Origin: Candidatus Methylomirabilota bacterium
GTDB lineage: Bacteria; Methylomirabilota; Methylomirabilia; Rokubacteriales; DASRDR01
DNA: 64,000 nucleotides
Direction of reading: 5' to 3'
Assembly: GCA_036001225.1 (NCBI GenBank)
Contig: DASYUM010000339.1
Coordinates: 2,808 to 66,807 of the forward strand
Below the pieces are notes generated by a model. The model saw only the letters and a list, made by a program, of their open reading frames with translations. It made no database searches and was not told the origin of the DNA. Positions 844 to 55,468 of the stretch are shown here, one piece after another. The position numbers were made by a program, and so were the translations under genes. Position 1 is the stretch's first letter. Every line of letters starts with the position of its first letter.

Positions 844-1767
844 GTGGACCCCGTCCTGCTGCTCGTCCAGGGGCTCAACGGCCTCCAGCTCGGCGTCATG
901 CTCTTTCTCATGGCGGCCGGGCTCACGCTGATCTTCGGGATCATGAACATCGTGAACCTCGCCCACGGCTCGCTCTACATGGTGGGAGCCTATCTGGCGG
1001 TCGCCTTCCAAGAGTGGACCGGATCGTACCTGCTCGCCATCCTGCTCGCCCTGCCGGCCACCGCCCTGGTCGGCATCACGGTGGAGGCGGTCGCCATCCG
1101 GCGCCTCTACACCCGCGACCATCTCGACCAGGTCCTGGCCACCTTCGGCTTGATCCTCTTCTTCAACGAGCTGGTCCGCATCCTGGGGGGGAAGGCGGCC
1201 CGCTACATGGCCCTGCCGGCCGCGCTCTCCGGCCACGTGCAACTGGTTCCCGGCGCCCGCTACCCGGTCTACCGCCTGGTCGTGGTCGCCGTCGGCCTCC
1301 TGGTCGCGCTCTTCCTCTATGGGCTCATCACCCGAACCCGCCTGGGCATGCTGATCCGGGCTGGCGCCAGCAACCGCCAGATGGTGGCCGCGCTCGGCGT
1401 GAACATTCGTCTCCTCTACACGCTGGTATTCGGCCTGGGAGCGGCCCTGGCCGGCCTGGCCGGGCTGATGACGGGGCCCCTGGTGTCGATCGAATCGGGG
1501 ATGGGTGAGCCGGTCCTGATCCTCACCTTCGTGGTGATCGTGATCGGCGGGATCGGCTCGATCCGGGGGGCGCTGGTGGCGGCGATCCTGGTCGGGCTGG
1601 TGGACACCATGGGACGGGCCTTCCTGCCGCCGGCGCTCGGCACCGTCCTGCCCCCCCAGGCCGCGAACCAGGCCGGGCCGGCGCTCGCCTCGATGCTGAT
1701 CTACGTCCTCATGGCCGGCGTCCTCGCCGTTCGCCCCGAAGGGCTCTTCCCCGCCCGAACGGGGTAA
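844..1767 (+). CDS. livH: Branched-chain amino-acid ABC transporter permease LivH
   Basis: 307 aa with a GTG start immediately after the upstream TGA. Multi-TM permease with LivH-type motifs (LTLIFGIMNIVNLAHGSLYMVGAY). Confidence 0.85.
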   Translation: MDPVLLLVQGLNGLQLGVMLFLMAAGLTLIFGIMNIVNLAHGSLYMVGAYLAVAFQEWTGSYLLAILLALPATALVGITVEAVAIRRLYTRDHLDQVLATFGLILFFNELVRILGGKAARYMALPAALSGHVQLVPGARYPVYRLVVVAVGLLVALFLYGLITRTRLGMLIRAGASNRQMVAALGVNIRLLYTLVFGLGAALAGLAGLMTGPLVSIESGMGEPVLILTFVVIVIGGIGSIRGALVAAILVGLVDTMGRAFLPPALGTVLPPQAANQAGPALASMLIYVLMAGVLAVRPEGLFPARTG

Positions 1768-1900
1768 TTCGATGGCGATCGATTCCCGCCAGCGCCTGGA
1801 CGTCGCCGCGCCCGAACCGAAGCGCTCCGAGCGCGGGCTTTGCCCGCGCCACTCCCGGGGGGTGGCTTCGGAGGGGGGCGTGAGCCCCCCACCGATGGAG
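1768..1900 (+). other. ~133-bp intergenic insert between livH and livM with two GC-rich hairpins (1831-1849 gcgcgggc-ttt-gcccgcgc; 1873-1890 ggggggc-GTGA-gcccccc)
   Basis: Perfect inverted repeats read directly from the sequence. The insert is flanked by two copies of the livH 3' end. Confidence 0.5.
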
Positions 1901-1996
1901 ACCGGGCCGGCGCTCGCCTCGATGCTGATCTACGTCCTCATGGCCGGCGTCCTGGCGTTCCGACCGGAAGGACTGTTTCCCGCCCGTACCGGCTGA
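1901..1996 (+). repeat. Direct duplicate of the last ~95 nt of livH (copy of 1672-1767). It regenerates the LivH C-terminus …GPALASMLIYVLMAGVLA(F/V)RPEGLFPARTG
   Basis: 52 nt are identical (1672-1723 vs 1901-1952). The remaining ~43 nt differ mostly at synonymous positions. Copy 2 ends TGA-c-ATG directly on livM. Confidence 0.7.
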
Positions 1997-1997
1997 C

Positions 1998-2945
1998 ATG
2001 CCGGACCGCCTCCACGCGCCCGCGCTCATGGCCGGCTTGGCCCTGCTCGCGCTGGTGCCGGTGGCGGCCCGGGTCTTCGATGCCCCGTTCTACCTGACCC
2101 TGGTCGGGCGGATGATGATCTGGGCGCTGGCCGCCCTCAGCCTGAACCTGATCCTCGGCTACGGCGGCATGGTGAGCTTCGGGCACGCGGCCTACCTCGG
2201 CGTCGGGGTCTACACGGTCGGCATCCTGAGCTACCACGGGATCCACAGCGGCTTCGTCCAGTGGCCGGCCGCGATCGTCGCCGCCGCCGTGATCGCCGCC
2301 GCCGTCGGCGCCGTCTCGCTGCGGACGAGCGGCGTCTACTTCATCATGATCACCCTCGCCTTCGCGCAGATGCTCTATTTCCTGGGCGTCAGCCTCAAGA
2401 CCTACGGCGGCGACGACGGGATGAGCCTGACCGCCCGCAGCCGCTTCGGGGGACTGCTCGACCTCGAGGACGCCACCGTCTTCTACTACCTCGTCTTCGT
2501 CCTCCTGCTCACCTTCCTCTACCTGAGCCACCGGCTCGTCCACTCCCGCTTCGGCATGGTGCTCCGCGGATGCCGCTCCAACGAGCGCCGGATGCGGGCC
2601 ATCGGCTTCCCCACCTACCGGTACAAGCTCGCCGCCTTCGTGATCGCCGGCGTCACGTGCGCGGTGGCCGGTGTGCTCCTGGTGAACTTCACCAAGTACA
2701 CGAGCCCGGCCTTCATGCACTGGACGCGCTCGGGCGAGATCATGGTCATGGTGATCCTGGGCGGCATGGGCACCATCGCCGGCCCCGTGCTGGGGGCGTT
2801 CGCCTTCCTGGCCCTCGAGGAGATCCTGTCCGGGTACACCGAGTACTGGCCGGTCGTCCTCGGCCCCGCCCTCATCCTCATCGTGCTGTTCGCCAAGCGC
2901 GGCCTGGCCGGGCTGCTCGAGCGGCGGAGCGCGGCCGGTGGCTGA
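1998..2945 (+). CDS. livM: Branched-chain amino-acid ABC transporter permease LivM
   Basis: 315 aa hydrophobic LivM-like protein. Its ATG lies 1 nt after the upstream TGA. Confidence 0.85.
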   Translation: MPDRLHAPALMAGLALLALVPVAARVFDAPFYLTLVGRMMIWALAALSLNLILGYGGMVSFGHAAYLGVGVYTVGILSYHGIHSGFVQWPAAIVAAAVIAAAVGAVSLRTSGVYFIMITLAFAQMLYFLGVSLKTYGGDDGMSLTARSRFGGLLDLEDATVFYYLVFVLLLTFLYLSHRLVHSRFGMVLRGCRSNERRMRAIGFPTYRYKLAAFVIAGVTCAVAGVLLVNFTKYTSPAFMHWTRSGEIMVMVILGGMGTIAGPVLGAFAFLALEEILSGYTEYWPVVLGPALILIVLFAKRGLAGLLERRSAAGG

Positions 2946-4683: not shown

Positions 4684-6057
4684 TCACGCGTCTCGTTGCC
4701 ATCGGTGCCCGGGCGGCCGGTGATCGAAGAACCGCTTCGCCTTCAGCTCGTAGCGGGGCAGGCTCCGGCCCGGCAGCACCTCGACGCCGATCGTCACCCC
4801 GATCGCCTCCTTGAGGACGCGCTCGGCCTCCGCCCGCAGCGCCGGGTAGGCGGTCGCGGCCACCTCCGGCCGCGCCTCCGCCTTGACCGTGACCGCGTCG
4901 TTCGACGCCTCCCACGTCACGTGCACCTCGTAGTGCTCGGAGAGCCCGGCCACCTCGTGGAGGAGCGCCTCCACCGCCGACGGATACACGTTGACGCCCT
5001 TGACGATGATCATGTGGTCGGTGCGGCCGAGGACCCCCCCGGGGTAGCCGGTCCAGGTGGTCCCGCACCCGCAGGGCGCCTGCGTCCAGCGGACGAGGTC
5101 GTGGGTCCGGTACTTGATGAGCGGCTGGCCGTGCTGGAGGTAGGAGGTGACGATGTGCTCGCCCACCTCGCCGTCGGGGACCCGGCGATCCTCCCGGTCC
5201 ACCACCAGCGCGTGGTACCAGTCCTCGCAGAGGTGGACGCGGTCGGCGAGCGGACAGCCGGGGTTGGTCGGGCCCAGCTCGGCGATCCCGTACAGCTCGT
5301 AGACCCGGGCTCCCCACAGCTCGGCGATGGCCTCTCGGGTGGTGGGGATGGAGCCGCCCGGTTCGCCCGACACGATCACGATCGAGACCCCGCTCTGGCG
5401 GAGGTCCACGTTCATCTGGCGCGCGACCTCGCCGAGGTAGAGGGCATAGGTCGGGGTGACGACCACGACGTCCGGCCGATAGGCGAGGAGCTGGTTGATG
5501 CGTCCCTTGGAATCGAGGCCCCCGCCCGAGATCACGGTGCCGCCGAGGCGCCGCACGCCCATGTAGGCGCTCCAGAAGGCGGCGAAGATCCCCCAGTGGA
5601 ACGGGAAGTAGAAGCTGTGCCGGGGCCGGAGACCGATCCCCCAGTAGAGGTAGACCCACGACTCGCCCCACAGGAGCGACGAGTAGTAGGTGAGCGGGAT
5701 GTGGAGCGGCACCCCGGTGGAACCCGAGGTCTGGAAGCGGTGGAGGAAGAAGTCCTCGGGAACGGCCAGCGCCTCGCCGAACGGCGGGCCGGCGGCCTGG
5801 GCCTCCAGGATCTCCTGCTTGTCGATGATGGGCAGCCGCTTCTCGAAGTCGTCCATCGTCCGGATCTGCGCGGGCCGCACCTTCGCCCGGTCGAGGAGCC
5901 GCCGGTACATGGGGCTGCGGGCGTAGGCGTAGCGGATCAGCGCCTGGAGCTTCCGGAGGTGGAGGCGGTCCAGCTCGGCCCGGGACAGCGTCTGCGTGTA
6001 GGGGTTCCAGAATCGCGCGCCGAGGGTCTGGTCCCTGAAGAGCGCGAGCGGCTTCAT
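4684..6057 (-). CDS. Phenylacetate-CoA ligase family protein (PaaK / coenzyme F390 synthetase-like adenylate-forming enzyme)
   Basis: The real start is ATG 6055-6057 (MKPLALFRDQ…), preceded by an RBS-like sequence. The upstream 220 aa of the 680-aa ORF in the track are Arg-rich junk. PaaK-like motifs are present (FQTSGSTGVP, YGIAELGP). Confidence 0.8.
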   Translation of the reverse strand: MKPLALFRDQTLGARFWNPYTQTLSRAELDRLHLRKLQALIRYAYARSPMYRRLLDRAKVRPAQIRTMDDFEKRLPIIDKQEILEAQAAGPPFGEALAVPEDFFLHRFQTSGSTGVPLHIPLTYYSSLLWGESWVYLYWGIGLRPRHSFYFPFHWGIFAAFWSAYMGVRRLGGTVISGGGLDSKGRINQLLAYRPDVVVVTPTYALYLGEVARQMNVDLRQSGVSIVIVSGEPGGSIPTTREAIAELWGARVYELYGIAELGPTNPGCPLADRVHLCEDWYHALVVDREDRRVPDGEVGEHIVTSYLQHGQPLIKYRTHDLVRWTQAPCGCGTTWTGYPGGVLGRTDHMIIVKGVNVYPSAVEALLHEVAGLSEHYEVHVTWEASNDAVTVKAEARPEVAATAYPALRAEAERVLKEAIGVTIGVEVLPGRSLPRYELKAKRFFDHRPPGHRWQRDA

Positions 6058-18857: not shown

Positions 18858-18928
18858 AGGACGCAGGGAGGAGGCGGGCCGAGGCGTATGCCGCATACGT
18901 TGAGGCCCGCCGATGACCGAGGACGACG
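18858..18928. repeat. Intergenic structured repeat element, copy 1: GGCGGGCC-GAGG-CGTATG-CCG-CATACG-TTGA-GGCCCGCC nested hairpins
   Basis: A second, longer copy is at 55341-55468. The outer stem shows compensatory changes between copies (GGCGGGCC/GGCCCGCC versus GGCGGCCC/GGGCCGCC). Confidence 0.65.
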
Positions 18929-25451: not shown

Positions 25452-25572
25452 TCGCGCGCGGCCGGAGACTGAATCGCCGACCGTATGGTGGTCCGCTCCG
25501 AGCGGCGGCTTTGCCGCCGCAATTTTCCTGGGGGAGGTCTCGGAGGGGGCCGTCGAGGCCCCCTCCGAAAAT

Positions 25573-26604
25573 CTAGTCATACAGGATCGTCTTCAGCCGG
25601 GCGATCATGGGCGGCTCCAGCTTGAACAGCCGCTCGACGACGCGCTCGAGCTCGTCCCCGGGGATCGGCTCGATCTCGAGCTTCGCCCGCTCGGCTTCGG
25701 CGAGGAACTCCTTGTCACGTAGCGTGGCCGCGAACGCGCGGCGCAAGAGCTGCACGCGGTCCCTGGGGGTCCCCGGCGGCAAGGCGAGCGAGCGGACGAC
25801 GGCGCTGTCGGCGTGGATCGCGACTTCGATCACGCGGCGCGCCTCGTCGGTCTTGGCGAGGTCGATGGCGAGCGGGACGCCGGGCAGCTCGGGGTGGCTC
25901 TTCGGCGCGAGCTGGAGGAGGACCACCAGCTCGCCGGCGTCCAGCGCCTTCCGCCAGGTCGCGCGGATCGAGCCCCAGTTGAAACAGGTGCCGGCCAGCT
26001 CCCCGGCCTCCACCGCGAGCCGGATGTCGGCGGTGCCCTTGTAGCCGGTGACGAGCTGGATCGGGAGCCCGAGCGCCGCCTTGATCGCCCGGGTGGCGTT
26101 GTCCGGGGTGCTGGAACCCGGCGCGACCCCGCCCATCTTCACCGGCGCCGGGGCCGTCATCCACTTCTCCAGGGTCGTGATGCCGCTGGCCTTCGCCATG
26201 ACGCAGACGACGTGATCGTTGGCGGGGGCGCCGAGGAACTCGAACTTCCGGGCGTCGAACTCGATGCCCTTCTGGCCCAGGACCTGGCCGAGGAACAGTC
26301 CGCCGATGAAGTGGCCGATGGTCAGCCCATCCGGCCGGGCGACCTTGTAGACGTGATTGGCCGCGATCAGGCTGCCCGCCCCCGGCATGTTCTCGACGAT
26401 GACCGTCGGGGCGCCGGGAAGCTGCCGGCCCAGGTGCCGGGCGAACGTGCGGGCGAACGTGTCGAAGCCCCCACCGGCCGAGAAGCCGACCACGATGCGG
26501 ATCGTCTTGCCCCGGTAGAAGTCGTCCTGGGCGACCGCCGCGGCCGGCGCGATGCCAGCCACGCCGAGCACGAGCAGAAGCCGCGCGAACCGGCCACGGG
26601 TCAT
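25573..26604 (-). CDS. tctC: Tripartite tricarboxylate transporter substrate-binding protein TctC (Bug family), paralogue 2
   Basis: ATG 26602-26604 is preceded by AAGGAG. Signal peptide MTRGRFARLLLVLGVAGIAPAAAVA. Roughly 60% identical to paralogue 1. Confidence 0.8.
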   Translation of the reverse strand: MTRGRFARLLLVLGVAGIAPAAAVAQDDFYRGKTIRIVVGFSAGGGFDTFARTFARHLGRQLPGAPTVIVENMPGAGSLIAANHVYKVARPDGLTIGHFIGGLFLGQVLGQKGIEFDARKFEFLGAPANDHVVCVMAKASGITTLEKWMTAPAPVKMGGVAPGSSTPDNATRAIKAALGLPIQLVTGYKGTADIRLAVEAGELAGTCFNWGSIRATWRKALDAGELVVLLQLAPKSHPELPGVPLAIDLAKTDEARRVIEVAIHADSAVVRSLALPPGTPRDRVQLLRRAFAATLRDKEFLAEAERAKLEIEPIPGDELERVVERLFKLEPPMIARLKTILYD

Positions 26605-55287: not shown

Positions 55288-55340
55288 ATCCCAAAATCGG
55301 ACGACGACCGCAGGTGCGGGGCCAAGTAACGAGCATAGCG

Positions 55341-55468
55341 AGGACGCAGGGAGGAGGCGGCCCGAGGCGTATGCCGCACACGCGCGCCGCAGGACGTCGC
55401 GGGGCTGGGGCCCCGCCGTCCGTGGCGCGACACCCGAATGTGAGGGCCGCCGACGACCGAGGACGACG
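55341..55468. repeat. Intergenic structured repeat element, copy 2 (128 bp; copy 1 plus a 57-bp inner hairpin-forming insertion)
   Basis: Shares aggacgcagggaggaggcgg…gaggcgtatgccgca…ccgccga(c/t)gaccgaggacgacg with 18858-18928. Lies in the convergent gap between the Gfo/Idh gene and the ankyrin gene. Confidence 0.65.

Follow-up and report, generated by a model that had tools for sequence, protein, structure and literature searches.

A hairpin repeat related in kind to REP elements and MIRUs lies between two apparent, diverged copies of the livH-livM junction in a Methylomirabilota genome

We analysed a stretch of 64,000 nucleotides (the window; G+C content 72%) on contig DASYUM010000339.1 of a Candidatus Methylomirabilota bacterium. 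The subject is the junction between livH and livM, two permease genes of the branched-chain amino-acid transport cluster livK, livH, livM, livG and livF, which is followed by genes for an AMP-binding protein and VIT1 (Pfam labels). A dispersed repeat, here called family A, lies in this junction between two copies of the 3′ end of livH. The best LivH relatives belong to metagenome-assembled genomes (MAGs) of Rokubacteria/Rokuibacteriota. Features are given below in window coordinates; L numbers denote other contigs or loci.

844-1767, plus strand: livH, a 307-aa branched-chain amino-acid ABC permease; a functional open reading frame (ORF) ending in the upstream tail and TAA. PF02653 was found on the identical L001 gene, and the protein is a 100% match to an NCBI Methylomirabilota LivH.
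1673-1724, plus strand: conserved block, copy 1, 52 nt encoding GPALASMLIYVLMAGVL.
1725-1767, plus strand: tail 1, the diverged, V-type 3′ end used by livH, ending ACG GGG TAA; closest to relatives L143 and L140, with three synonymous single-nucleotide polymorphisms (SNPs) among strains.
1768-1807, plus strand: stub resembling the livM 5′ end (4-nt spacer TTCG, ATG at 1772, ~12 codons), apparently the redundant half of the upstream junction copy.
1802-1900, plus strand: family A repeat (left arm ending CCGAAGCGCT, hairpin 1, linker, hairpin 2); 77.5 bits, E = 5e-16 with covariance model R1, aligned with 23 other copies.
1831-1849, no strand assigned: hairpin 1, GCGCGGGC-TTT-GCCCGCGC, a perfect stem.
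1868-1895 (core 1873-1890), no strand assigned: hairpin 2, TCGG-A-GGGGGGC-GTGA-GCCCCCC-A-CCGA.
1902-1953, plus strand: conserved block, copy 2.
1954-1996, plus strand: tail 2, the canonical, F-type livH 3′ end, ending ACC GGC TGA; now redundant, it is the native upstream context of livM, and the livH tail of L004, the empty-site contig, has the same sequence.
1772-1996, plus strand: ORF74, a 74-codon stop-free frame with a shorter in-frame start at 1895; no protein function is claimed.
1998-2945, plus strand: livM, a 315-aa permease, with no Shine-Dalgarno-like sequence in the 15 nt preceding its ATG.
25473-25573, plus strand: second copy of family A, flanked by two genes on the minus strand; 88.4 bits, E = 2e-18 with R1.

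The first-pass annotation of the window, made from the letters alone, described a duplicated and synonymously diverged livH 3′ end. The duplication is real: positions 1673-1724 and 1902-1953 are identical at 52 of 52 nt, and no shuffled window contained two matches of this block. Tails 1 and 2 differ at 13 of 43 positions, an identity of ~70% rather than the ~75% first given. The changes are mostly synonymous: 11 affect third positions and leave the amino acid unchanged, one codon is GTT (Val) in tail 1 and TTC (Phe) in tail 2, and the stop codons are TAA and TGA, respectively. Both tails encode ...GPALASMLIYVLMAGVLA(V/F)RPEGLFPARTG. The sharp edge after 52 nt arises in part because the block is strongly conserved, with 1-7 differences in 52 nt among relatives having 82-90% LivH identity. 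Copy 2 runs into livM through TGA-c-ATG at 1994-2000. This coupling and the 74-aa ORF were found as first annotated, as were the two perfect hairpins. Folded as DNA, both hairpins were far more stable than shuffled sequences (z = -3.5 for 1831-1849; z = -5.5 for 1873-1890 with its extended stem, 1868-1895).

An exact look-up of the LivM sequence returned four Joint Genome Institute (JGI) contigs of one project, L001 to L004. L001 has the same arrangement as the window, and L002 has the same arrangement plus an extra 18-nt in-frame tandem duplication within the spacer. Both contigs stem from other samples; SNPs and the 18-nt indel set them apart, with the architecture unchanged. L003 begins just before copy 2. 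A Methylomirabilota MAG contig among the NCBI third-party annotation records also has this architecture and an identical LivH protein. In L004, which belongs to the same population, livH carries tail 2 and is followed directly by TGA-c-ATG and livM, with no insert. The window and L001 differ at 14 of 6945 positions, and flank identity between strains is 99.8-99.9%. Four of the 14 SNPs fall in the island 1725-1901 (Fisher p = 3e-4). SNPs in tail 1 are all synonymous, and the single copy 2 SNP (in L002) is non-synonymous.

Two smaller observations concern the strain differences. The duplicated 18 nt of L002 (GGGGGGTGGCTTCGGAGG; L002 3861-3878, equivalent to an insertion after window position 1860) were seen in one strain and represent slippage in the G-rich linker of the repeat. 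Window positions 5246-5382, in a minus-strand AMP-binding (PaaK-like) gene, hold five SNPs in 136 nt relative to L001, against 0.2% divergence overall; this cluster looks like a short recombination import.

The junction was compared across 84 loci. The gap between the livH stop and the livM start was ~0-20 nt in nearly all of them, and a long gap was present only in this population (231-249 nt) and in L009 (233 nt). In the close relatives livM starts 0-7 nt past the livH stop or overlaps it; all of them show the direct TGA-n-ATG or overlapping coupling that the first-pass annotation had expected. The closest available relatives, L140, L141, L142 and L143 (87-90% LivH identity), are all empty, with stop and start adjoining or overlapping. 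The insertion proposed at first is borne out, in that ~229 nt of the window junction have no counterpart in any close relative or in L004. In most close relatives livH ends in ...GGC TGA, as in tail 2 (GGA TGA in L140, GGG TGA in L141). Direct coupling and tail-2-type ends in the relatives indicate that direct coupling with a tail-2-type end is the ancestral state.

To trace the repeat, we looked for exact matches to a 24-nt pattern around hairpin 1 in public metagenome contigs. This core turned up in 53 of them, which stem from many projects on soil and sediment and have mutually unrelated flanks. The family A unit, defined by an alignment (A4) of 24 copies from which R1 was built, is ~95 nt long. 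A short left arm is followed by hairpin 1 (GAGCGCGGGC-TTT-GCCCGCGC), a linker with TGGGGGGAGG at its end, and hairpin 2 (TCGGA-GGGGGGC-loop-GCCCCCC-TCCGA). Both sides of the stems have changed at 5 of 20 pairs; the inner stem pair of hairpin 2 is GC in 15 copies, CG in 7 and UA in 1. The loop of hairpin 2 is variable, and the GNRA-type GTGA loop singled out in the first-pass annotation is not conserved across the family. Within the window R1 matched two sites, 1802-1900 and 25473-25573. In the second copy hairpin 1 (25502-25520) reads GAGCGGCGGC-TTT-GCCGCCGC, which keeps the stem by two compensatory pair swaps relative to 1831-1849. A BLAST search with the whole spacer gave short chance matches only within the window, and the second copy surfaced through the metagenome scan and the covariance model.

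Family A copies occur in three gene contexts: co-directional (with the copy in either orientation), convergent and divergent. Rfam returned no family match to the spacer (best E = 3.4 and 8, far below gathering scores), and a literature search on Rokubacteria repeats found nothing relevant. An intrinsic terminator was rejected, since no terminator-like site (a GC-rich hairpin with a T-run) occurs in 1500-2200 on either strand; no promoter signature was found there. A miniature inverted-repeat transposable element was rejected on the grounds of two separate internal hairpins, no terminal inverted repeats, and no flanking direct repeats at other copies. No GTAG-like head is visible in the 24-copy alignment. 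We conclude that family A is a non-autonomous, DNA-level repeat family resembling repetitive extragenic palindromic (REP) sequences and bacterial interspersed mosaic elements (BIMEs), and that it is common in high-GC soil genomes of these bacteria. A longer subfamily (L091, L100, L103, L105, L111, L118, L129) has an extra module left of the family A core, consisting of a small hairpin, GGCCTKYCGGAGTAAGGCC, directly after the stop codon of the upstream gene. Some copies also have a third hairpin between hairpins 1 and 2.

The first-pass annotation proposed an element bringing its own replacement C-terminal segment. It is correct that livH uses the upstream tail and that the canonical tail stays beside livM; however, the repeat does not include this upstream tail. 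No livH-like sequence was found beside any of the ~38-40 other family A copies, and neither BLAST nor local alignment with shuffles detected significant flanking direct repeats at those copies. The copy at 25473-25573 has no flanking duplication, nor do the two window copies of a second repeat family, family B (below). The first 40 nt of the spacer, 1768-1807, were not significantly similar to what lies left of other family A copies, and an assignment of this part to family A was therefore rejected.

The 45 nt past the livH TAA (1768-1812; TTCG ATG GCG ATC GAT TCC CGC ...) align instead with the livH stop and livM start of L142 (TGA CGCG ATG CCC GAT CGC CTC CGC ...), with a shuffle p of 0.001, or roughly 0.01 allowing for eight targets. 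The ATG of the stub and the livM ATG of L142 occupy the same +4 position. The upstream copy therefore looks like a whole second, diverged livH-livM junction: ~95 nt of livH, a stop, a 4-nt spacer and ~40 nt of livM-like sequence. The repeat lies between this upstream junction copy and the native-type junction. Because the homology runs past the livH stop into the livM-like stub, the upstream segment is better described as a second copy of a chromosomal junction than as an attP-like site.

The two tails are strongly diverged. Tail 1 has 8 differences from L140 (5 for the L001 version of the tail) and 7 from L143, all fewer than the 13 that separate it from tail 2. Tail 2 is nearest to L005, with 6 differences. 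At third positions 12 of 15 differ between the tails, against 31-41% gene-wide between this livH and its relatives. These counts (13/43 and 12/15) indicate that the split between the tails is no younger than that between these species and that the tails are not recent in-place duplicates. Given the distribution of differences in relatives, the probability of zero differences between the blocks is ~0.002.

Strongly diverged tails within flanks that are 99.8-99.9% identical among strains point to a recombination mosaic. The reading that we favour, with moderate confidence, is that a repeat of the REP kind, placed like a mycobacterial interspersed repetitive unit (MIRU), is flanked by a junction duplication of mosaic origin. 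Homologous exchange would use the 52-nt block and the gene bodies and would homogenise the flanks up to the block on each side, whereas it could cross the unique island 1725-1901 only by deleting it. The island would then either predate its flanks or have come from a diverged relative, in the latter case possibly by crossing over within the block and livM. Recombination of block with block would remove exactly 229 nt and give the empty allele seen in L004.

A second lineage has a long insert at the same junction. L009 is a different Rokubacteria MAG (82% LivH identity), whose sequence was also independently assembled as L144. The core of its 233-nt spacer is family B, a different dispersed repeat (...GTATGCGGCATACGCCTCGGCCCGCCTCCTCCCTGCG...GGCCCCGCACCT), which also occurs twice in the window.

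18862-18918 and 55312-55378, both minus strand: family B copies, 93-95% identical to the L009 insert (L009 3944-4110).

In L009 livH ends in ...ACCGGCTGA, and the sequence before livM, ...ACCGACTGATG, resembles the canonical junction of relatives; ACCGRCTGA stands both at the livH end and just before livM. The sequence right after the L009 livH stop resembles the livM start of L006 (p ~0.03). The flank similarity in L009 is not significant by a general shuffle test, and as a parallel to the window locus L009 is therefore suggestive only.

The consequences of the arrangement for translation were considered. A start codon within a few bases of the upstream stop is the classic layout of translational coupling (reviewed in PMC12548453). 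An insertion exactly at the gene boundary would part livM from terminating ribosomes, and one farther upstream would truncate LivH. With the boundary duplicated, the upstream junction copy would complete livH, and the downstream copy would keep livM behind its native 95 nt. The ORF74 frame is stop-free through the repeat, from ATG 1772 (4 nt past the livH TAA) to a TGA 1 nt before the livM ATG, and it is kept in three strains, including L002 despite the 18-nt indel. Such a frame could hand terminating ribosomes on to livM, which itself has no Shine-Dalgarno sequence. A MIRU offers a precedent: a repeat-borne frame at a start codon in an operon is coupled to the downstream gene, with expression little disturbed (PMC12548453). 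JGI gene calls list ORF74 in L001; in L002 and L003 they list a 33-aa version. Outside this population no homologue of ORF74 was found: it forms a single cluster of its own in the protein database, and the search otherwise returned pieces of the livH tail joined to unrelated N-termini. No sign of a functional protein was seen; these annotated hypothetical genes are probably by-products of the duplication. Since both genes remain whole and a stop-free relay frame persists, the insertion is probably tolerated rather than obviously useful.

Several findings weigh against the mosaic reading. The donor lineage was not found: no LivM begins MAIDSRQRL..., and tail 1 occurs on no other livH. Which tail is native is ambiguous, with tail 1 nearest to L140/L143 and tail 2 nearest to L005 on small counts. 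Sliding-window identity gave no clear import tract, and upstream and downstream genes gave no discordant relationships; import of the whole downstream half of the operon was rejected on both grounds. The proposal gives no route for the first duplication of the junction. The empty allele in the population is, on present sequence data, one assembled contig, L004. The flank duplication in L009 was not significant by shuffling (p = 0.07-0.2). An open 43-codon frame is ~50% likely at 72% G+C (an estimate from base composition), so that the relay is compatible with the model and is not evidence for it.

The alternative that survives best, though we think it unlikely, is an old origin in place. A tandem duplication of the junction, or a long duplication of the target upon insertion of the repeat, would have been followed by drift of tail 1 at synonymous sites, with copy 2 kept by selection on the ORF74 peptide or on the livM context and the blocks homogenised by gene conversion. 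The decay of the livM-like stub is what would be expected of an old redundant copy, the blocks are identical, and L009 has a comparable architecture with decayed redundant parts. Against this, an old origin requires independent, precise losses in L140, L141, L142, L143 and L005-L007. Compared with L005, copy 2 is free of non-synonymous changes, although the synonymous divergence of tail 1 is near-saturated. Selection on the peptide fits poorly with an ORF74 confined to this population and with the non-synonymous copy 2 SNP in one strain.

A more general proposal is that hairpin repeats of Methylomirabilota colonise coupled boundaries by a route that duplicates the boundary. Family A in the window and family B in L009/L144 would then be two independent cases of an insertion mode so far undescribed, in which the target duplication is long and variable and is bridged by a relay frame. 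We regard this as a speculative extension, a little less plausible than the old origin in place. Marginally more doubtful again is an explanation of the window locus by long-duplication insertion alone, for example through a widely staggered break or a template switch, with the divergence of tail 1 acquired later by recombination. In its favour, the same coupled junction holds unrelated repeat families in two lineages, each flanked on either side by junction-like sequence; however, ~38 other family A copies and both window copies of family B have no flanking duplication, and the shuffling result for L009 counts against it too.

A remnant of a site-specific integrative element is improbable. 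On this explanation an integrase-bearing element inserted at the 52-nt core in the livH 3′ end, brought its own gene end and lost its interior, leaving an attL-attR pair like that of a cis-mobilizable element (CIME). The identical 52-nt direct repeats, the diverged element-side end upstream, the displaced original end downstream and an empty site equal to the product of precise excision (L004) all have the expected form. The logic of tRNA-targeting elements invoked in the first-pass annotation thus holds as an analogy of outcome, but not of mechanism, given that there is no integrase and that the homology continues past the livH stop. No integrase or recombinase gene was found in the 229 nt or among the flanking genes. 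The interior is almost wholly one unit of a repeat known from ordinary intergenic sites, and the replacement segment extends into the livM-like stub. Because the block is nearly invariant in all relatives, its 52/52 identity is largely accounted for by general conservation and says little for an att core. No larger parent element was seen, all relatives being empty or, in one case, carrying the 233-nt repeat insert. A phage or provirus origin was rejected, as neither the block nor tail 1 nor hairpin 1 was matched in viral contigs. We conclude that no integrase is involved. An assembly artefact, in which two strain variants were collapsed or joined as a chimera around the repeat, is the least probable explanation and the architecture unlikely to be a one-off misassembly: the data are metagenomic, L003 breaks just before copy 2 and a 52-nt repeat can confuse small-k assembly graphs, but three non-identical assemblies agree on the architecture while differing by SNPs and the 18-nt indel, the block is shorter than a sequencing read, and tail 1 and the stub occur nowhere else and therefore have no alternative place to belong.

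We compared the locus with known systems. Like REP/BIME sequences of Enterobacteria and Pseudomonas and RIME-type elements of rhizobia, family A is made of short GC-rich hairpin modules in a mosaic, is extragenic (including within operons), occurs in both orientations, has compensatory stems and is non-coding. It differs from REP/BIME sequences in having no sequence similarity to them and no GTAG-type head. The window copy differs further in that it sits where normally there is no intergenic space and is flanked by a duplicated gene junction, which to our knowledge is not a known feature of REP sequences.

MIRU frames overlap both flanking genes, and MIRU units occur as a variable-number tandem repeat (VNTR). 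The window locus resembles MIRUs in placement, with a repeat at an operon start codon whose open frame is coupled to the downstream gene (PMC12548453), the frame here running from 4 nt past the livH stop to 1 nt before the livM ATG. Phylum and sequence differ, and the coupling end of the frame comes from the duplicated livH piece rather than from the repeat. There is a single unit and no VNTR, with only the internal tandem variant of L002. Integrative elements that target 3′ ends (of tRNA, tmRNA and some protein genes) and CIMEs share with the locus direct repeats, a replacement 3′ end, a displaced original end on the far side and possible precise loss; unlike them, the locus has no recombinase, spans 229 nt in all, has a dispersed repeat as its interior and carries a segment that extends into the start of the next gene. 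Rickettsia palindromic elements (RPEs) are likewise small palindromic repeats tolerated in or near coding sequence by frame preservation. RPEs, however, lie in frame inside genes and form part of the protein, whereas this repeat lies between two complete genes and contributes a relay frame only. The locus is thus a REP-like repeat in a duplicated, seemingly mosaic gene junction, an unusual variant of known intergenic repeats whose placement recalls MIRUs and which by sequence is a member of neither group.

Coupled pairs such as livH-livM have no neutral space between them and therefore should resist selfish intergenic repeats. The present locus may illustrate one way past this barrier, in which the boundary is duplicated, each gene uses the adjacent copy and an open frame bridges the gap. 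It may also be a natural example of a heterologous insertion that shelters a short gene stretch from homogenising recombination, leaving a deeply diverged island in near-identical strains. Families A and B could be modelled and masked in Methylomirabilota genomes.

Possible further cases of a retained livH end were also noticed. In L138 507-833 (Ga0209536_100524114) and L139 28-246 (Ga0435661_0497051), short ORFs just upstream of livM consist of the last 30-48 LivH residues fused to unrelated N-termini, that of L138 being a sulfatase N-terminus. They may be rearrangements that retained the livH tail beside livM, or chimeric assemblies. The European Nucleotide Archive (ENA) contig with P0002 (ERZ27301951) carries a 346-aa gene, a 105-nt gap and a 40-aa ORF (MTEAQAANQAGPALASMLIYILMAGVLAFRPEGLFPARRG), and may represent one more livH-livM junction where the end of livH is duplicated.

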